A stretch of DNA of 25,376 nucleotides from a virus. Its lineage: Duplodnaviria > Heunggongvirae > Uroviricota > Caudoviricetes. A program made the translations under genes and the position numbers. Below, piece by piece: positions 2,834-14,424 of this stretch (its first letter is position 1; each line of letters begins with the position of its first letter). The notes under the pieces were generated by a model. The model saw only the letters and a program-made list of their open reading frames with translations, was not told where the DNA came from and made no database searches. The stretch lies in the IMG/VR virus record IMGVR_UViG_648276644_000006, one strand, 5' to 3'.

Positions 2834-3430
2834 TTAATTTGAAACTATTGTACTTCTTATACAAGCAACTACTTCAATATCAGAAAATGCACATTCAAAG
2901 CTATTCTCTGTACTTGTAATTTTAATCATACCTTTTGGAAGCTTTGTGATTTTTCGAATGGAATAGGTTCCGTCGATGTTGATTAACCAGTGCCCATCAA
3001 GTACTTCAGAAAATTTTTGATCACAAATGTATGTGACGAGCCCATCCTGAATAACAATTGGTGATGAAAGATTTGCAGGAAGAAATGATGAATCGAAGAC
3101 ATATGAACCATCTTCAATCATTTTGCCTGCGGTAAGGCGAAACTTGGCAAGCTCTTCTGTAGCTGCTGTCAGCGAGCTTTGCTTAAGGCCTTGCCCGGTG
3201 GTTAACCATTTCAGTGAGGTTCCTGTTTCAAGAGCACATTGGATTATCCAGTCTGCAGGAAACGTATCCCGCAAATACCTGTTCGCCAGAGTGCTTTTTG
3301 ATACTTCCAAGTGATCAGCTAAAGCCTGTCGTGTCGTAAAGCCATAAGCTTCGACTAATCGCTCAATCGCAGCCTTACCACCTTTATTGGGATTTATTTT
3401 GATCTCATTTGGGTACTTTGATGTTGACAT
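2834..3430 (-). CDS. cI: Phage CI repressor, 186-type (HTH N-terminal domain plus C-terminal oligomerisation domain), 198 aa
   Basis: ERLVEAYGFTTRQALADHLEVSKSTLANRYLRD ... CALETGTSLKWLTTGQG matches the 186 CI-type HTH domain family; leftward orientation next to int; divergent from the early operon. Confidence 0.85.
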   Translation of the reverse strand: MSTSKYPNEIKINPNKGGKAAIERLVEAYGFTTRQALADHLEVSKSTLANRYLRDTFPADWIIQCALETGTSLKWLTTGQGLKQSSLTAATEELAKFRLTAGKMIEDGSYVFDSSFLPANLSSPIVIQDGLVTYICDQKFSEVLDGHWLINIDGTYSIRKITKLPKGMIKITSTENSFECAFSDIEVVACIRSTIVSN

Positions 3431-5103: not shown

Positions 5104-5330
5104 TGGCTGATGCAATGGATCTCGTACAGCAGCGCGTTGAAGAAGAACGCCAGCGCCATATCCGTGCTGCCCGTGCCAAAACGCCGGGCGTGTCCCGCGT
5201 GCTTTGCGTTGAGTGTGAAGCGCCAATTCCGCCAGCACGCCGCCGTGCCATTCCGGGTGTGCAGCTTTGCATTACATGTCAGGAAATCGCAGAGCTGAAA
5301 GGCAAACATTACAACGGAGGTGCTGTATGA
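5103..5330 (+). CDS. TraR/DksA-family C4 zinc-finger protein, 75 aa
   Basis: CVEC-x17-CITC four-cysteine spacing characteristic of the DksA/TraR zinc finger; translationally coupled to flanking genes. Confidence 0.75.
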   Translation: MADAMDLVQQRVEEERQRHIRAARAKTPGVSRVLCVECEAPIPPARRRAIPGVQLCITCQEIAELKGKHYNGGAV

Positions 5331-6184
5331 GCACCATCTTGAAATGGGCGGGAAATAAAACCGCCGTAATGTCCGAACTGAAAAAACATCTTCCTGCTGG
5401 TCCGCGACTAGTTGAACCTTTCGCGGGTTCCTGTGCTGTGATGATGGAGACGGATTATCCCTGCTATCTGGTTGCGGATATTAATCCTGATTTAATCAAC
5501 CTCTATAAAAAGGTTGCCGCTGATTGTGAATCGTTTATATCTCGCGCCAAAGTTTTATTTGAGATCGCAAACAGGGAGGTGGCTTATTACAACATAAGGC
5601 AGGAGTTTAATTACTCAACTGAAATTACTGATTTCATGAAAGCGGTATATTTCCTGTATCTCAATCGTCACGGTTACCGTGGGTTATGTCGCTATAACAA
5701 GAGCGGGCATTTCAACATTCCCTACGGTAATTATAAAAATCCGTATTTCCCTGAAAAAGAAATTCGCGCTTTTGCAGAAAAAGCCCAGCGAGCAACGTTT
5801 ATCTGCGCCAGCTTTGATGAAACGCTGGCGATGTTGAAGGCGGGGGATGTGGTGTATTGCGATCCGCCTTATGACGGTACGTTTTCCGGCTATCACGCTG
5901 ACGGCTTTACTGAAGATGACCAGTATCACCTGGCATCCGTTCTTGAACATCGGTCATCAGAAGGACATCCGGTCATTGTTTCTAACAGTGACACATCCCT
6001 GATCCGTTCGCTGTATCGCAATTTTACTCACCACTATATCAAGGTAAAACGCAGCATCGGCGTAGCAGCTGGTGAGAGTAAATCAGCAAAAGAAATCATT
6101 GCTGTTTCCGGGCCGCGCTGCTGGGTGGGATTTGATTATTCGCGTGGCGTGGATAGTTCTGCCGTGTACGGAGTACGTGCATGA
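5327..6184 (+). CDS. dam: Orphan DNA adenine (N6) methyltransferase, Dam family, 285 aa
   Basis: N-terminal SAM-binding region (LKWAGNK ... [10 protein letters not shown]) and the catalytic DPPY motif (VYCDPPYDG) line up with E. coli Dam; no adjacent restriction endonuclease gene; GGAGG Shine-Dalgarno before ATG 5327. Confidence 0.9.
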
Positions 6185-8034
6185 GCCATGCCGATATGAG
6201 CAACTGCTGCGGCTTTAACGAGGCTGCCGCATCGTTCTCATGGAACAGCCCGAAAAAGGCCATTAACCCTTATCTGGACCCGGCGGAAGTTGCGCCGGTT
6301 TCTGCGCTTTCAAACCTGATCACTCTGTACGCTGCCGATAACGAGCAGGAACAACTGCGCCGCGAGGCACTGAGTGATCAGGTCTGGGAGCGTTATTTCT
6401 TTAATGAATCCCGTGATCCTGTCCAACGCGAAATAGAGCAGGATAAGCTCATTAGCCGGGCAAAGTTGGCGCATGAGCAGCAGCGTTTTAACCCGGACAT
6501 GGTCATTCTGGCAGACGTCAGCGCCCAGCCCTCCCATATCAGCAAGCCGCTGATGCAACGTATTGAATACTTCAGCAGCCTGGGCAGGCCAAAGGCTTAT
6601 TCCCGCTATTTACGTGAGACGATTAAGCCATGTCTGGAACGACTGGAGCATGTACGCGACAGCCAGCTATCTGCATCTTTTCGTTTTATGGCAAGCCATG
6701 TAGGGCTGGACGGCCTGCTGATTCTGCCTGAAATGAGTCAGGATCAGGTGAAACGCCTGTCTACCCTTGTCGCTGCGCATATGAGCATGTGCCTTGATGC
6801 AGCTTGTGGTGATTTGTATGCCACCGATGACGTTAAGCCAGAAGAAATCCGCAAGACATGGGAAAAGGTGGCAGCGGAAACCCTGCGTCTGGATGTCATC
6901 CCGCCTGCGTTTGAGCAACTCCGTCGGAAAAGAAACCGCCGTAAACCCGTGCCCTATGAACTCATTCCGGGTTCGCTGGCGCGTATGTTGTGCGCCGACT
7001 GGTGGTACCGGAAATTATGGAAAATGCGTTGCGAATGGCGGGAAGAGCAGTTGCGTGCTGTCTGCCTGGTCAGCAAAAAAGCATCTCCCTATGTCAGCTA
7101 TGAAGCCGTGATGCATAAACGTGAGCAGCGCCGCAAGTCACTGGAGTTTTTCCGTTCTCATGAACTGGTGAACGAAGAGGGCGACACGCTGGATATGGAA
7201 GACGTGGTAAACGCCAGCAGCAGCAACCCGGCGCACCGCCGCAATGAGATGATGGCCTGTGTTAAAGGTCTGGAGCTTATCGCGGAAATGCGCGGTGACT
7301 GCGCCGTTTTCTACACCATTACCTGTCCGTCACGTTTCCATTCCACGCTCAATAACGGCAGACCAAACCCAACCTGGACAAATGCGACGGTAAGACAAAG
7401 CAGCGATTATCTGGTCGGCATGTTTGCTGCATTTCGTAAGGCGATGCACAAAGCCGGGTTGCGCTGGTATGGCGTGCGGGTGGCTGAGCCGCATCATGAC
7501 GGTACAGTTCACTGGCACCTGTTGTGTTTCATGCGCAAAAAAGACCGCCGCGCCATTACTGCATTGTTGCGTAAGTTTGCCATCCGTGAAGACCGCGAGG
7601 AACTGGGTAATAACACTGGTCCACGCTTTAAATCTGAGCTGATAAACCCGCGCAAAGGAACGCCGACAAGCTACATCGCGAAATACATCAGTAAGAACAT
7701 TGACGGGCGTGGTCTGGCTGGCGAGATCAGCAAGGAAACGGGTAAATCCCTGCGTGATAACGCTGAATACGTTAATGCCTGGGCGTCTCTGCATCGTGTT
7801 CAGCAATTCCGCTTCTTTGGTATTCCGGGACGTCAGGCTTACCGTGAACTTCGCTTGCTGGCTGGTCAGGCGGCAAGGCAACAGGGTGACAAAAAGCAGG
7901 TGCGCCGGTACTGGATAACCCGCGTCTTGATGCCATTCTGGCTGCTGCTGATGCTGGTGTTTTGCCACCTACATCATGAAGCAGGGCGGCGTACTGGTTC
8001 CCCGCAAATATCACCTCATCAGAACCGCTTATGA
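6181..8034 (+). CDS. A: Replication initiation endonuclease A (P2 gpA / 186 A family, rolling-circle initiator), N-terminal and central part; reading frame is lost near 7895
   Basis: 617-aa ORF in the A position after dam, with the gpA-like catalytic region (HWHLLCF, tyrosine-rich YIAKYISKN segment). The last roughly 45 codons ([26 protein letters not shown]...) look like out-of-frame translation. Confidence 0.8.
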
Positions 8035-8593
8035 AATCAACGAAGAGCCAACCGCCTATGGCGATCACGGTATTCGTATTTATGGCATCTGGTCACCCAT
8101 TGCAGAGGGCAAGATCTGCACTCATGCAGTGAAGTGGAAAATGGTTCGTAAGGCCGTTGACGTTCAGGAGGCGGCAGCCGACCAGGGCGCTTGCGCCCCT
8201 TGGACTCGTGGCAATAACTGTCCCCTTGCTGAAAATTTGAACCAACAGGAGAAAGATAAATCAGCTGATGGGGACCCCAGAACGGACATTACCAGCATGG
8301 ATGACAAGGAGTTGCACGATTACCTGCACAGTATGAGCAAAAAAGAGCGCCGGGAACTGGCAGCAAGGTTACGCCTGGTGAAACCGAAACGGCGTAAAGA
8401 CTACAAACAGCGAATTACAGACCATCAGCGACTGCAGCTCGTGTATGAGCTGAAGTCCAGAGGATTTGATGGCAGCGAGAAAGAGGTTGATTTACTCCTT
8501 CGCGGAGGCAGTATTCCGTCAGGAGCAGGCCTGCGTATCTTCTATCGGAACCAGCGTTTGCAGGAAGATGATCAGTGGCGGAACCTGTATTAA
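7976..8593 (+). CDS. A: C-terminal portion of replication protein A, encoded in a different frame from the upstream A ORF (frameshifted gene or sequencing error)
   Basis: 205-aa ORF overlapping the end of the 6181-8034 ORF in another frame; combined length of the two pieces is in the range of intact A proteins; the third frame across 7890-7976 is also open and protein-like. Confidence 0.6.
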
Positions 8594-9399: not shown

Positions 9400-9507
9400 T
9401 TTACCAATAATAACCTTACAATGTACACTACCTATTGAATTTTCCATAGTTGGCCTTTGGCTCTACTTACCATCTATGTTTATGTATTTTATCAAAATGG
9501 ACTAAAA

Positions 9508-11400
9508 ATGCACAATACGTACATCAAAGACTATATAGAATATTACCTTAGCCTTAAAACTGAACCTCAATACGCCATTATGCTTAAAGGTGCTTGGGGA
9601 TCAGGTAAAACTTGGTTCATTGAACGAGTTCTTGAAGAATATAAGCAAAAGCATTCAGAGTTCAAATTTCTTAAAGTGAGTTTGTATGGCGTCAACTCTA
9701 TTGAGCAGATTGAAGATGAGTTCTATCGTCAACTTCATCCTATTCTATCAAACAAAGCCCTTATCTTTGGTGCAAATGTACTAAAAAATACGCTTAAGGC
9801 TACTTTCAAGATCGATTTCAATGGCGATAATAAGTCTGACGTAGATGTCAATGCCAGTGTCCCCACCATTAATCTTAGCGACTTTAGCAGAGAACCAGAT
9901 GGTTTTGTGCTGGTCTTTGATGATATCGAGAGAGCTGGTATAGATTTACCAATCTTATTTGGATATATAAATCACTTTGTAGAAGTAAACGGATACAAAG
10001 CGATCCTGGTTGCCAATGAAGAAGAAATAATCAACAGAGAAAAGCGAATAAATAATGATGATGAGAAATCTAGCAGTGAATACATAAGAACAAAAGAAAA
10101 GCTTGTAGGTAAAACATTTGAAGTAACGTCAGATTTACCTAGTGCTTGTAATGTTTTCTTGGGCGTAATTAGTAGTTTACACGTAGCTAATATATTTAAA
10201 GAAGATATGCAGACCATAGAACACCTCTATGTGTCGGCGAAATATAATAATCTAAGACATTTGAGGCAGTTCTTTCTTGATGTACAACGCATCATTTCCC
10301 TTTTGGGAGATAAATATGTCAGCAACGACGATTTTATGAAAGTATTTTTCCAGCAGTTATTAATTTTCTCGATGGAGTACCGGGGAGGGAACCTTAACTA
10401 CGAGGATTTCAATTCAATCGGCAATGTAAATTATAGTATGTTTTTAGATAAAGGGCGTACCAAAACTAAGTATGACATGATCGTCGAGAAATATTCATCA
10501 CCTGTATTAACCGAGACGTTACTGGATGGTGCGTACTGGAGAGAGCTAATCTGTGATGGAAAGGTAACGCATGATCTTCTCGCTCAGCTGGATATTACGC
10601 GATTTTTTAGAAGCACCGATGCCCAAGCATGGGAGTATTTGTGGAACTATCGAGAACTTAATGAAACTATGCTTAATGAACAGTACGCCATTGCCAAGGA
10701 TAATCTATTTTCAGGTAAGATCACTTCCTTAGGTGAACTCCTGATGACCGCGAGTATTTTGCTGGCATTGGCGAAAGAAGGTTTAACCACAGATGCTGTT
10801 GATGACATTATAAATGAGACAAAACATCATATAGATATTTATTACAATGGATTAGGACCTGAAGATATACATCAGGAGTATGCGCAAAGACATTATAATG
10901 AGTTAATGGCATGGCGTGGCTTTGGTTTTCTTGACAGGGATAGCGATGAATTCAAACTCATTATTGAGCATATTAAGATAGCGCAGAAGAAACGGTTTGA
11001 TGAATCAATTCCGGAGTTTGCATTGAAGTTCAGCGATGAGTTGCAAAGAGGGAATTTATCGTTTGTATCTGAATTGTGTCATTCTAATAATAGGCAGCTA
11101 AATCTTCATAACGTGCCTTTTTTACACTTGGTTTCTCCTGAAGTTTTCATTGAAAGCTATAGGAAACTTGACCCAATCATCATGAGGAAACTGGCATTTA
11201 GCTTGAGGGATCGTTATTCTGATAGGGATGCCAGAACCAGACTGACCGAAGAATACAACTGGTTGATTAGCCTAAAAGAGATAGCTGTAGATTTCACTCA
11301 AAACGCAGCCAATAACTCCTTTCAGGTTTTTCATGTAAAGTTTTTTATTGACTATGCACTAACTAATGCAATCAAATTATTTACTGAGGGAACTGATTAA
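9508..11400 (+). CDS. KAP-family P-loop NTPase, about 630 aa (start uncertain; an alternative TTG lies at 9457); candidate defence/cargo gene
   Basis: N-terminal Walker A in the KAP-type form GAWGSGKT (LKGAWGSGKTWFIERV); a hydrophobic stretch followed by two acidic residues (FVLVFDDIERAG), Walker B-like; large size; gene and flanks are conspicuously AT-rich compared with the phage backbone. Confidence 0.65.
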   Translation: MHNTYIKDYIEYYLSLKTEPQYAIMLKGAWGSGKTWFIERVLEEYKQKHSEFKFLKVSLYGVNSIEQIEDEFYRQLHPILSNKALIFGANVLKNTLKATFKIDFNGDNKSDVDVNASVPTINLSDFSREPDGFVLVFDDIERAGIDLPILFGYINHFVEVNGYKAILVANEEEIINREKRINNDDEKSSSEYIRTKEKLVGKTFEVTSDLPSACNVFLGVISSLHVANIFKEDMQTIEHLYVSAKYNNLRHLRQFFLDVQRIISLLGDKYVSNDDFMKVFFQQLLIFSMEYRGGNLNYEDFNSIGNVNYSMFLDKGRTKTKYDMIVEKYSSPVLTETLLDGAYWRELICDGKVTHDLLAQLDITRFFRSTDAQAWEYLWNYRELNETMLNEQYAIAKDNLFSGKITSLGELLMTASILLALAKEGLTTDAVDDIINETKHHIDIYYNGLGPEDIHQEYAQRHYNELMAWRGFGFLDRDSDEFKLIIEHIKIAQKKRFDESIPEFALKFSDELQRGNLSFVSELCHSNNRQLNLHNVPFLHLVSPEVFIESYRKLDPIIMRKLAFSLRDRYSDRDARTRLTEEYNWLISLKEIAVDFTQNAANNSFQVFHVKFFIDYALTNAIKLFTEGTD

Positions 11401-11462
11401 CATTTTGTTGATTAACATAGGTAATATTATTAGAAGTACTAGACATGGTCAGTAAAATTATT

Positions 11463-11490
11463 AAAGTCCGCTTCGCTCGAAGCGGACTTT
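11463..11490. terminator. Hairpin terminator downstream of the KAP NTPase gene (perfect 13-bp inverted repeat)
   Basis: aaagtccgcttcg ct cgaagcggacttt; GC-rich stem with T-rich flanks on both strands, so it could terminate in either direction. Confidence 0.5.
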
Positions 11491-11685
11491 GTGCTTTATA
11501 AAAACGAGAGTTTTGTTTTTCAAGCGGTCATTCGGTTACGGGATTTCACTTCCCCCGTAAGTGCATGACTATGCCGCATGAGATCGCATGATCGTTTGCG
11601 GATCGTTTTTGCTAAGGTCCGCCAGAACTGGCGGGCTTTTGCGTAGATCATGCAGGTGCATGAAAACCACTACATAAAGTGGGCA

Positions 11686-11704
11686 GGCGTGGCGGGGATA
11701 CGAG
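11686..11704 (+). other. cos-like motif (putative cohesive-end site of a P2/186-type genome)
   Basis: GGCGTGGCGGGGATACGAG shares its first 13 nt with the 186 cohesive-end sequence GGCGTGGCGGGGAAAGCAT as I recall it (P2: GGCGAGGCGGGGAAAGCAC); lies in the expected interval between the right-arm cargo and portal gene Q. Confidence 0.3.
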
Positions 11705-11834
11705 CGCGCGCTAACTCTTGGCTTTGTTTCATAATCAAAAATGTGATCATTGAGATTATTCTTAATTTTATGTTTGTCTATGAAATATCATTTCGCTTAA
11801 CATTGTTTGAGTTAGGACTACATGAGAATAAAGA

Positions 11835-12410
11835 ATGCTTTTACCCGTAAGTGTTACATCGTGTGGCTTGTATCACCCCTACTGGCATTTGGGAGAGCGC
11901 AACCCTCATAGCGATGAACTATCAAGGCAGATGATGGATTTTAAGGATGAAAATAATCGTAATCATCAAAGGGCTATTAACCGTTTTTCTCGATTAGCTA
12001 TAGATAAGGTTGGGCGGTTAGTAATCAGAGGTGGCGGTGGGCGTTTTGTTGAGTCTCCTTTTTCGATAGCAGTCGTCCCATCTCACACTGAAGGCAGAAT
12101 TTCACCGGCTTTGATTGAGGTCGCCGAGCGAATCGTAAATGTTCACCGTCGGGGCATTGTTGATTGCTGTTTGGAAAGAACACGCACTGTTCCTAGCGCA
12201 CATCGTGAAGGAGGAGATCGCTCAATTACTGGTCACATGTCTAGTATCAGAGTTAGGGGTGGTAACCTCATGGGGCGAAATGTGTTACTACTAGATGATG
12301 TTAAAACAACAGGCGGTAGTTTGTCTGCGTGTTTTTATTTACTGGAGTCTGCAGGAGCTGGAGTTATAATGCCATTAGCTCTGCTAGAAACTGCAAACTA
12401 TGAGGAGTAG
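11835..12410 (+). CDS. Phosphoribosyltransferase (PRTase) domain protein, ComF-like, 191 aa (start uncertain; in-frame ATGs also at 11931 and 11934)
   Basis: Canonical PRPP-binding loop VLLLDDVKTTGGSLSAC near the C-terminus; glycine-rich loop RGGGGR upstream; stop overlaps the start of the next gene. Confidence 0.7.
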   Translation: MLLPVSVTSCGLYHPYWHLGERNPHSDELSRQMMDFKDENNRNHQRAINRFSRLAIDKVGRLVIRGGGGRFVESPFSIAVVPSHTEGRISPALIEVAERIVNVHRRGIVDCCLERTRTVPSAHREGGDRSITGHMSSIRVRGGNLMGRNVLLLDDVKTTGGSLSACFYLLESAGAGVIMPLALLETANYEE

Positions 12411-13374
12411 CAAAGTGCACTCAGAAGAATTAAAAAATACACTTGGATTAGCTATTCAAATCGGGAAGCTAGCATCTGATCAAAGTGTATTGAAATTCTT
12501 TGAGCTTATTGATTTTGATGTTATTCGTGATATACGCGACTTAACTGAGATGGTTAATAGCCACGGGTTTCTAAAAGATAAAATATCTGAGACTGATTTT
12601 CTAATAGCGAATGCTGAATTGGAGAACCACCATGTTAATGGTGTGGAGCTAATACCATATGGGTCTGAATTCTATCCTCTTAGTTTAGCGTTTACTCCTA
12701 ATCCACCATCAATTCTCTACATAAAAGGGGATAAAAGTATACTAAAAGAATTGCCGGGTGTCGCAATTGTAGGATCCCGTGATACTTCCCCTGCAGGGGA
12801 AGAAATAACGAGGCGAATCACTAATCAGATAGTGTCTGCTGGGTATATTGTTGTAAGTGGGTTAGCAATAGGCACTGATGCGAATGCTCATAAGGCAACG
12901 TTACAAGCAAAAGGAAAAACCATTGCTGTCTTGGCGCATGGTCTTGAGGAGGCTAAGCCGAAGCAAAACAGTCGACTTGCTCAAGAGATTCTGGATAAAG
13001 GTGGTGCATGGATTTCTGAGTATCCTATGGGGCGACCGGCCCAGAAACAATCATTTGTACAAAGAAATCGGATACAAGTTGGATTATCTGCAGGTTCAAT
13101 TTTAATCGAGGCTGCGTTAAATAGCGGAACGATAACTCAAGCTGAGTTTGCAAATAAGGCGAAAAGACCAGTGTTTGCGGTTGTACCTCACCTACCTAAT
13201 AATCCGCTTAATCTTAATTGTGAGGGAACAGTTGATTTAGTTAAGAGCAACATGGCTAGAGCGTTAAAAACAAAACGGGATTATGATGATGTGATTATGA
13301 TCATAAATGAGTCTCGGGAGTATTTGTTAGAGCTAAAATGGCCAGGGAAACAGAGTACATTAGACTTGATTTAA
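12400..13374 (+). CDS. DprA/Smf-like (SLOG/Rossmann-fold DNA-processing protein A family) protein, 324 aa
   Basis: YPLSLAFTPNPPSILYIKGDKSILKELPGVAIVGSRDTSPAGEE ... VVSGLAIGTDANAHKATLQAKGKTIAVLAHGLEE ... QRNRIQVGLSAGSILIEAALNSGTITQAEFANKAKRPVFAV follows the DprA domain pattern (PP-LF-GxxxxL; VAIVGSR; SGxAxGxDxxAH; TIAVLxxGL; RNRI; SGTxxTAxxA). ATG 12400 overlaps the PRTase stop by 11 nt (ATGAGGAGTAG); an alternative GTG at 12415 has a GAGGAG Shine-Dalgarno. Confidence 0.8.
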   Translation: MRSSKVHSEELKNTLGLAIQIGKLASDQSVLKFFELIDFDVIRDIRDLTEMVNSHGFLKDKISETDFLIANAELENHHVNGVELIPYGSEFYPLSLAFTPNPPSILYIKGDKSILKELPGVAIVGSRDTSPAGEEITRRITNQIVSAGYIVVSGLAIGTDANAHKATLQAKGKTIAVLAHGLEEAKPKQNSRLAQEILDKGGAWISEYPMGRPAQKQSFVQRNRIQVGLSAGSILIEAALNSGTITQAEFANKAKRPVFAVVPHLPNNPLNLNCEGTVDLVKSNMARALKTKRDYDDVIMIINESREYLLELKWPGKQSTLDLI

Positions 13375-13375
13375 A

Positions 13376-13392
13376 GCGCCTCTTTTAGAGGC
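13376..13392. terminator. Short hairpin between the convergent DprA-like and portal genes
   Basis: gcctct ttt agaggc inverted repeat between stop codons at 13374 (plus) and 13399 (minus). Confidence 0.35.
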
Positions 13393-13398
13393 ACTTTG

Positions 13399-14424
13399 CT
13401 AAATTTGATATCTCTCGAATTTTATAATTTCTTCACCGCTCCAATGATTAAATTCTTTCATTCTTTTTTGTAATGGTAATAATTCATTTTTCACAAATAC
13501 CTTACTAGCTTTTTCTACATCCCCAAATCCCCCAACATTATTAGGCATTATCCCCATCATCTGTGGCGGAACGCGATGTGCTGCCATCATGTCATCCCGG
13601 CTCACGTTCTTGATATTTAGAAACTCATCCTTCGCCGCAACTTCTGACAAAGGGATGATCTGAAGGCCGTCCTTTTTGCCGTTAGGCGAGTACATAAACA
13701 GGTTGCGGAAGTTACCCGGACCTTTGGCACTTTTCATTGCATTGCGGAGGTTGTTCACGTCCTCCTGGTTCTGCGCAGCATCGGTCATGTACATGATGAA
13801 GCCTGCATGACTACCGTTAATGTAATACTTGCGGCGGAACAGCGTGGCGGACTCATTGAGCAGGGCGGACGGAATGGCAGAAAGATAGCCGGGCAGGCCG
13901 TAGATCTCCTGGTTAATGTCCGGTTCCATCAGATGAAAAATGCTGCCTTTCGTGAACTGATACGGCTGGGTTGTCATACCGTATTGCACAAACCAGTAGG
14001 TATCCAGGTCTAACCCGCGTCGGGTGTATTTTGCCAGAGCAGGCTCAAGGGCGATAACTTCACCGAAGCGGTTCGTGCGTTTCTCCAGGTAGGCGTTACC
14101 AAATACCAGATAGTCCTGCACAAAACGTGAAAAAGCCTGCTGGCTGAGCAGCGGGTGAGGGATGTAGGTACTGGTCAGAATGTTGCATTTTACTGCAATT
14201 GGTGAGCTGTGATGCACGGCAGCGCGGAAGGTTCGTGCCAGTCCGTCAAAGCTGACGGGCGGCTCATACCAGCGGTCCATCTGTACGCATTCCACATAGT
14301 CCAGCAGTTCACGGCGGTCCAGAACAGGAACGGGATCGCCAAAGCTGAATGCTTCGGCTGAAGTCTGGCTTTTATGCTTGAGCTGATTCGTCGCCGCAGC
14401 GCGGTTTTTCTTACTCTTTCCCAT
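13399..14424 (-). CDS. Q: Portal protein (P2 gpQ homologue), 341 aa from ATG (ORF track extends 1 codon to a TTG)
   Basis: Size, position and orientation match P2 Q; translation is portal-like; start ATG overlaps the stop of the terminase gene by 1 nt. Confidence 0.9.
   Translation of the reverse strand: MGKSKKNRAAATNQLKHKSQTSAEAFSFGDPVPVLDRRELLDYVECVQMDRWYEPPVSFDGLARTFRAAVHHSSPIAVKCNILTSTYIPHPLLSQQAFSRFVQDYLVFGNAYLEKRTNRFGEVIALEPALAKYTRRGLDLDTYWFVQYGMTTQPYQFTKGSIFHLMEPDINQEIYGLPGYLSAIPSALLNESATLFRRKYYINGSHAGFIMYMTDAAQNQEDVNNLRNAMKSAKGPGNFRNLFMYSPNGKKDGLQIIPLSEVAAKDEFLNIKNVSRDDMMAAHRVPPQMMGIMPNNVGGFGDVEKASKVFVKNELLPLQKRMKEFNHWSGEEIIKFERYQI

Follow-up and report, generated by a model that had tools for sequence, protein, structure and literature searches.

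A short-toxin ShosTA-type gene pair as probable anti-phage cargo between cos and the portal gene of an Escherichia coli P2-like prophage

We consider a stretch of 25,376 nucleotides (nt) from the IMG/VR virus record IMGVR_UViG_648276644_000006 (the window, in whose coordinates positions are given unless another record is named). The window holds a P2-like prophage of Escherichia coli, and in it we examine two adjacent genes flanked by a P2-type cos site on one side and portal gene Q on the other. The first gene encodes a phosphoribosyltransferase (PRTase) of 191 amino acids (aa) and the second a DprA-like protein. Combining profile searches, structure prediction, genome comparison and the published work on related systems, we conclude that the pair is probably a type IV toxin-antitoxin module of the Shosta (ShosTA) family that serves the prophage as anti-phage cargo.

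Position of the gene pair in the prophage

The two open reading frames (ORFs) are intact and lie on the same strand (Table 1). On the left they are bounded by the cos site, which reads GGCGTGGCGGGGATACGAG where P2 cosL reads GGCGAGGCGGGGAAAGCAC; the agreement with P2 at the site and in its flanks bears out the cos-like site noticed in an earlier note on this DNA. On the right, the portal gene Q ends at 13399, and the pair thus fills what in P2 is a spacer of ~170 nt from cosL to the Q stop codon. With gpA at 6181-8593, the two genes are non-core genes between gpA and gpQ, and the earlier view that they stand outside the P2/186 core, in the cos-proximal variable region, holds. Their GC contents are 0.45 and 0.40, against 0.54 for the portal and terminase genes. 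In Pectobacterium, too, this cos motif is found upstream of the homologous pair. The gpA-gpQ interval next to cos is the hotspot defined in E. coli P2-like prophages by Rousset et al. 2022 (PMC9122126), who found it enriched in validated defence systems.

Table 1. Features of the cargo region, in window coordinates
Feature	Position	Strand	Basis
shosT-like putative toxin gene, 191-aa single-domain PRTase	11835..12410	+	PADLOC profile, family alignment, AlphaFold model, Foldseek
shosA-like putative antitoxin gene, DprA family, 319 aa (GTG 12415, the likelier start) or 324 aa (ATG 12400)	12400..13374	+	Pfam, PADLOC, AlphaFold2 model, Foldseek
Shine-Dalgarno sequence GAGGAG for the antitoxin gene, within the last toxin codons (..YEE*)	12402..12407	+	conserved junction
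P2-type cos (cohesive-end) site, left bound of the cargo	11685..11703	.	15/19 positions identical to P2 cosL; flanks on both sides alignable with the P2 ends
AT-rich leader 5' of the toxin gene, where the native promoter is presumed to lie	11704..11834	+	read from sequence
Tentative short hairpin in the gap where the antitoxin and portal genes converge	13376..13394	.	by-eye reading of sequence

The PRTase is a single-domain relative of ShosT

The first ORF carries the loop motif for phosphoribosyl pyrophosphate (PRPP), VLLLDDVKTTGGSLSAC, at residues 149-165. It belongs to a family of 42 homologues of 189-193 aa that are conserved along their whole length. In the family alignment D155 is invariant and D154 nearly so; the other invariant features are SCGxYHPY near the N-terminus, PSH at residues 82-84 and the flexible-loop motif SAHxEGGDRSxxGHM (GDRS...H at 127-134). 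Conservation remains full-length down to 40% identity, with the catalytic loops invariant.

The Pfam Pribosyltran profile gives this protein a weak score (18.6 bits, under the gathering cut-off of 26.3 bits), and its assignment as a PRTase is instead made because it matches the PADLOC ShosT model, because it has a conserved family of ~190 aa, and because it yields a confident AlphaFold model with the PRTase fold. The PADLOC model, PDLC03962, is matched with an E-value of 3.6e-14 over profile positions 62-211 of 237; here and below, PADLOC results are scans with individual PADLOC hidden Markov models (HMMs) rather than calls of the PADLOC or DefenseFinder pipelines. The AlphaFold2 (AF2) model, with a mean predicted local distance difference test score (pLDDT) of 90.6, is a single PRTase domain followed by a disordered C-terminus. 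When this model is compared with the Protein Data Bank (PDB) by Foldseek, the first three matches are the ShosT structures 8zvc, 8zvd and 8zvb (E 2.8e-6 to 1.9e-5), with a root-mean-square deviation of 2.6-3.4 Å over 140-164 columns. ComF (7p0h) comes fourth, and ComF and the metabolic PRTases all rank below ShosT. The PRTase with a PRPP loop that the earlier note read in this ORF is thus confirmed by the intact frame, the motif and the predicted fold, with Pfam itself below threshold.

Residues 1-33 are kept in homologues of 49-89% identity, therefore the start at M1 is right. A start at M33/M34 was considered, as PHROG family 7188 begins at residue 34, and it is ruled out by the same conserved residues. 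No HAD or Hydrolase profile matches the 191-aa protein, which thus has no recognisable N-terminal pyrophosphatase of the HAD type.

The partner is a DprA-like protein with the ShosA layout

The second ORF matches the Pfam family DNA_processg_A (1.4e-60) and the PADLOC ShosA model PDLC03961 (2.8e-70). In its AF2 model (pLDDT 92.6) an N-terminal helical domain is followed by a Rossmann/SLOG domain and then by a single added C-terminal helix with a disordered tail, which substantiates the DprA-like Rossmann/SLOG protein of the earlier note. The single helix and tail stand where canonical DprA has a C-terminal extension past the Rossmann domain; that extension is not present in the model. Foldseek aligns the model with ShosA (8zva) over 308/308 columns (2.8e-20), and the protein is 36% identical to the ShosA of avian pathogenic E. 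coli (APEC) O1. The profile searches and the structure predictions of each protein that the earlier note had proposed thus lead to the same family for both genes.

The residues to which Yang et al. 2026 (PMC12961424) assign roles in ShosA can be located by alignment. In the window protein R127 and R222 match the essential single-stranded DNA (ssDNA)-binding residues R139 and R234, and K188 matches the RecA contact K200. R261, which is dispensable in ShosA, is not conserved. As for the housekeeping DprA family, the score with the dprA equivalog TIGR00732 is 186.4 bits, short of its cut-off of 191.15, and that with PRK10736, the E. coli-type DprA, is 168.6 against 495.

The gene junction

The earlier note had reported an 11-nt overlap of the two coding regions and took it to imply translational coupling. 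The overlap is probably formal only, as it exists only with the ATG at 12400. The junction ...TATGAGGAG-stop-4 nt-GTG/TTG, with the consensus ...(T)A(T/C)GAGGAG-stop-4 nt-GTG/TTG, is common to the enterobacterial homologues from E. coli, phage SopEPhi, Hafnia, Pectobacterium and Atlantibacter. Because this junction is conserved, because the in-frame ATG is absent in Atlantibacter, and because independent gene callers begin the DprA-like gene of the homologues 4 nt past the toxin stop, the GTG at 12415 is the better supported start. The genes therefore probably do not overlap. The tight arrangement itself stands: the Shine-Dalgarno sequence of the second gene is contained in the final codons of the first, and tight translational coupling of the two is plausible. 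The disordered C-terminus of the PRTase (..YEE) is conserved because this signal is embedded there.

Distribution, pairing and selection

To examine whether the two genes belong together we turn to their relatives. A genome scan for relatives of the PRTase, with one genome per species, finds a DprA-like ORF directly downstream in 27 of 39 near-full-length relatives and adjacent on the opposite strand in 2 more; downstream of 40 weaker, generic PRTase matches no such ORF is found (0/40). The 27 come from Proteobacteria, Cyanobacteria, Bacteroidota, Firmicutes and Acidobacteriota as well as from several archaeal orders. The order of short PRTase followed by DprA-like gene is kept in a Hafnia P4-like satellite, in Shewanella and Aeromonas Mu-like prophages and in a Vibrio genomic island, and in Pectobacterium P2-like prophages the pair likewise lies between cos and Q. 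The pairing and the gene order are conserved, and the pair has moved between unrelated mobile elements; the two-gene unit suspected earlier is real, and the survey for recurrence that had been suggested finds it in P4-like and Mu-like as well as P2-like elements, in SopEPhi, and in bacteria and archaea alike. Nor is a third partner needed, as enteropathogenic E. coli (EPEC) E2348/69 has the pair without the KAP NTPase gene that neighbours it in the window.

Within E. coli the cassette is present in 33 of 5,426 complete genomes, EPEC E2348/69 among them. Compared with that strain, the antitoxin gene differs by 14 synonymous and 0 non-synonymous changes and the toxin gene by 3 synonymous and 1 non-synonymous change; the pair is under purifying selection. 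In the Salmonella phage SopEPhi (AY319521, 3489-5037), orf14 and orf15, both labelled 'unknown', are a homologous pair of short PRTase (49.5% identity) and DprA-like protein that is located just before portal gene Q, as in the window. SopEPhi is the only phage record found with the pair in a protein-level search, while a megablast search of the region against phage records matched the cos block alone.

The same comparison bears on the possibility that the locus is a decaying remnant, in which the DprA-like gene is an orphan and the ORF upstream of it does not function. In strains DETEC-E601 and E2348/69 the PRTase ORF is passed over by the Prokaryotic Genome Annotation Pipeline (PGAP), and gpA carries two homopolymer frameshifts, which suggests that the prophage may be degenerating. 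In all genomes checked, however, the PRTase ORF is unbroken, with 99-100% identity; its relatives are conserved as described above, it is annotated in ECCHD184 (WP_001316964.1), and its counterpart is present in SopEPhi. The idea is largely refuted by this conservation, and we regard its probability as close to negligible.

The annotation of the pair is itself uneven. In the RefSeq records annotated by PGAP the missing ORF of DETEC-E601 and E2348/69 (L001, 14436-15011; L091, 3320-3895) is an intact frame of 191 aa, and its partner gene is named 'DNA-processing protein DprA'; the toxin is likewise unannotated in a Vibrio assembly. Since the toxin is often unannotated and the antitoxin is named 'DprA', surveys of genomes under-count the Shosta system and over-count competence genes.

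Some relatives depart from the short form. A far longer open frame, up to 417-507 aa, stands upstream of the PRTase region in Pedobacter, Methanomassiliicoccales and Anoxybacillus, so some members of the paired family may carry extra N-terminal domains, as the long ShosT does. A cyanobacterial relative of 294 aa has no DprA partner; it and the relatives from anaerobic methanotrophic (ANME-2) archaea, to which we return below, are treated as outside the paired clade.

Relation to ShosTA

The DprA and PRTase genes of APEC O1 (pFR105), cloned from the P2 hotspot, protect against T7 and lambda (PMC9122126); Millman et al. 2022 regarded them as the same system as the toxin-antitoxin pair ShosTA. 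Structures and a mechanism have since been published by Pu et al. 2025 (PMC11961720; PDB 8zva-8zvd) and Yang et al. 2026 (PMC12961424; PDB 9vzo). According to these two studies, ShosT is a PRPP-dependent PRTase toxin proposed to upset purine metabolism and damage DNA replication. ShosA, a DprA-like protein, binds ssDNA and RecA and does not bind the toxin, and activation is proposed to follow transcription shut-off mediated by T7 gp0.7, phage ssDNA, or both. Toxicity and neutralisation without binding were demonstrated for the APEC O1 and KTE181 proteins (PMC11961720, PMC12961424), and the characterised system lowers T7 plating 10^6-fold (PMC11961720). The hotspot catalogue itself (PMC9122126, Table S5A) lists loci containing WP_001324531, to which the window antitoxin (WP_001324531.1) is identical; in some of them it adjoins the Pribosyltran protein WP_001324530, known to us from that listing alone, and one shows the arrangement of KAP_NTPase and DNA_processg_A that is found in the window.

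The window pair shares with the APEC O1 and KTE181 systems its two-gene make-up of PRTase toxin and DprA-like antitoxin, and it is the same kind of P2-hotspot cargo. It is homologous to ShosT and ShosA: the fold of its toxin is closest to ShosT and retains the PRPP-loop aspartates (D154/D155 for D331/D332), while the antitoxin shares the domain layout of ShosA and the equivalents of R139, R234 and K200. Among the traits of a Shosta pair, a ShosT-related toxin, a ShosA-related antitoxin with the ssDNA-binding arginines, and adjacent, co-oriented and recurrent genes are found here. The statement of the earlier note that no named system could be assigned is therefore not upheld, since both proteins match the Shosta models, a DprA and PRTase pair from the same hotspot is validated against T7 and lambda, and the ShosTA mechanism is published. 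Its suggestion of a conflict system was well placed, as the Shosta family is one of toxin-antitoxin anti-phage defence.

The differences are also clear. The characterised ShosT has 424 aa, with an N-terminal HAD-type pyrophosphatase and a C-terminal PRTase (PMC11961720), while the window toxin has only the latter. Its flexible-loop motif (SAHxEGGDRSxxGHM) is distinct, it has a small conserved N-terminal beta-hairpin segment (SCGxYHPY), and the pair lies on the Q side of cos while the APEC O1 system lies on the old/tin side. In ShosT the D331A/D332A change abolishes toxicity and the pyrophosphatase mutant R56A barely reduces it (PMC11961720). As the two aspartates are kept here, a toxin made of the PRTase alone is therefore plausible, and given that the R56A mutant is still toxic, the HAD/pyrophosphatase domain is accessory to ShosT and not defining. 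The window pair is accordingly a minimal, short-toxin ShosTA member of a described family in a published hotspot, and the short form is its only unusual point.

Several observations weigh against placing the pair with ShosTA, among them the lack of the N-terminal HAD/pyrophosphatase domain. Similarity of the toxin to APEC O1 ShosT is confined to ~45 residues at the PRPP loop (BLASTP 16/44; hhalign 47 columns at a probability of 87%), and phmmer against the PDB returns only weak generic PRTase matches and misses ShosT. The APEC O1 archetypes score 180 and 285 bits with the same broad PADLOC Shosta models and also match the long-type-specific pair PDLC03012 and PDLC02997; the window toxin has no match to PDLC03012, and the antitoxin scores a weak 113.5 bits with PDLC02997 where APEC O1 ShosA scores 765. 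The antitoxin resembles canonical DprA (3maj) about as much as it does ShosA, and two of the ShosA contacts are not conserved in it, L181/F182 of the dimer interface being Q169/A170 and R206, which contacts RecA, being A194. In the leader, which is specific to the cargo and does not align with P2, a scan with the sigma-70 consensus gives no match on the + strand. A literature search of incomplete coverage found no paper that assays a short-form toxin. Lastly, six ANME-2/Methanogaster contigs carry full-length short-PRTase relatives in housekeeping contexts with no DprA-like neighbour, one of them between a MATE-like transporter and an aminotransferase; therefore the fold is not necessarily toxic, and in these archaea it may have a solitary, non-toxic role. 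We also considered whether the window toxin is a recent truncation of a long ShosT, and dropped this because BLASTP and hhalign align the PRPP loop alone.

Comparison with other PRTase and DprA systems

PsyrTA, or RqlHI, also combines a DprA-like antitoxin with a PRTase-domain toxin, the latter being of the RecQ-like helicase-PRTase kind. The window toxin has no RecQ helicase domain, and the scores (PsyrA 1e-30; PsyrT 4.9e-6 over the PRTase region) fall far under those of the Shosta models. The P2 old/tin genes and other hotspot cargo share with the pair the cos-adjacent gpA-gpQ site, a low GC content of accessory genes and neighbouring candidate defence genes; their proteins and mechanism are unrelated, however, and the pair lies in the cos-Q spacer rather than between A and cos.

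Natural competence provides another potential model, in which ComFC, a protein of the PRTase fold, is functionally paired with DprA, an ssDNA and RecA mediator. The pair could then serve the phage itself, the PRTase-fold protein binding or passing ssDNA and the DprA-like protein loading RecA, thus aiding recombination of phage or host without any killing. The toxin has a weak match to the ComF family (TIGR00201, 1e-5, 25.5 bits) and ComF ranks fourth by structure; its partner falls just under the dprA equivalog cut-off and keeps the ssDNA-binding arginines. The ComF score, however, is far under its cut-off of 233.55 bits, and ShosT structures match better. ComFC carries an N-terminal zinc finger with multiple cysteines, while the N-terminus of the window toxin has one near-invariant cysteine (C10) and no such finger. 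The invariant PRPP-binding loops point to catalysis. The window DprA-like protein, at 324 aa with a single C-terminal helix, also differs from the 382-aa Rhodopseudomonas palustris DprA (3maj) with its C-terminal extension. The pair is adjacent on mobile elements rather than placed in competence regulons, it is accessory and patchy in E. coli, it moves between unrelated elements, and E. coli has its own smf/dprA. We judge this use of the pair very improbable; the structural resemblance behind the competence analogy of the earlier note is borne out, but the best match is ShosT and not ComF.

Proposed mechanism

For the toxicity of the window PRTase, its neutralisation, the defence phenotype, the trigger and the phage range, we reason by analogy with the characterised ShosTA pairs. 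By its homology to E. coli ShosTA, the 191-aa PRTase would be the toxin and would bind PRPP through its pyrophosphate (PPi), flexible and PRPP loops. It would move the phosphoribosyl group onto an acceptor and so perturb nucleotide, presumably purine, metabolism; replication and DNA damage might follow, and then arrest or death of the cell. With no N-terminal pyrophosphatase domain, removal of PPi would fall to host enzymes. The DprA-like antitoxin is predicted not to bind the toxin but to bind ssDNA and engage RecA-dependent recombination and repair, offsetting the damage. Upon infection its function would be lost and the toxin would abort the infection. Host transcription shut-off could end the resupply of an unstable antitoxin, or phage ssDNA and replication intermediates could titrate the antitoxin from RecA, alone or together with the former route.

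A related question is whether such a module defends the cell or only maintains its carrier. As an addiction module, the pair would stabilise the prophage or satellite by post-segregational killing, with no meaningful anti-phage activity. ShosTA was first described as a toxin-antitoxin system and behaves as type IV, with an antitoxin that does not bind the toxin (PMC11961720), and the pair is always carried by mobile elements. It lies, however, in a hotspot where validated defence systems are enriched (PMC9122126), it adjoins another defence candidate (the KAP NTPase, PADLOC PDC-S49), and its characterised relatives strongly reduce T7 plating. Addiction and defence are not mutually exclusive, and we consider addiction without defence improbable.

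It is also conceivable, if rather unlikely, that the short PRTase, rather than being just a ShosT that lacks its helper domain, is the family's ancestral form and the one most widely spread, with members in bacteria and archaea, and with perhaps another acceptor or target than the purine route of the long ShosT. For example, it could modify nucleic acids or nucleotides directly by way of the flexible loop GGDRS..H, which is distinctive and invariant, and the N-terminal hairpin, with the DprA-like partner acting as an ssDNA sensor.

If the pair is the anti-phage ShosTA module that we favour, an apparently unexplained prophage cargo can be recognised as a defence module of the Shosta type, located in a hotspot already published, and the value of the finding is mostly corrective. 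The toxin made of the PRTase alone would be a natural means to ask whether ShosT can do without its pyrophosphatase domain, and a smaller model for finding the acceptor substrate. SopEPhi, which we take to be a well-studied, inducible P2-like phage, would then be a ready experimental system.

Other genes and elements of the prophage

The tentative hairpin downstream of the pair lies at a position equivalent to the P2 tQ terminator; a terminator scan of the window did not report it.

On the other side of cos lies a KAP-family P-loop NTPase gene (9457-11400, + strand, likely start ATG 9505), followed by a strong bidirectional terminator hairpin of 13 bp at 11462-11491. The protein matches the PADLOC candidate system PDC-S49 (E 4.7e-161), and in Table S5B of Rousset et al. 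2022 (PMC9122126) a near-identical protein is entered as 'system 8, KAP_NTPase', with 306 loci; the KAP NTPase is not among the tested constructs in Table S2 of that work. We considered it as a third component of the pair, and this is ruled out by the terminator and cos site between them, by its absence from E2348/69 and from other genomes that carry the pair, and by its standing as a separate PDC-S49 candidate.

A second defence cargo site of the prophage is found between the integrase gene (1-1053) and the CI repressor gene (2834-3430), where a gene on the - strand (1137-2813) encodes a 558-aa protein with DUF4041 and T5orf172/MUG113 domains (PADLOC PD-Lambda-1, E 5e-120). DETEC-E601, the closest E. 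coli relative, has a different gene at this site.

Just 5' of gpA lies a gene (5267-6184, + strand) for a D12-class N6-adenine DNA methyltransferase (PADLOC orphan methyltransferase, E 6e-111), which is typical of 186-like phages and probably has an anti-restriction or regulatory role. The gpA gene itself is split into ORFs of 617 aa and 205 aa by single-base deletions at ~7891 and ~7958, which in comparison with DETEC-E601 fall in homopolymer runs (A6 to A5, GGTT to GGT). The split gpA reflects either a replication-defective prophage or sequencing errors.

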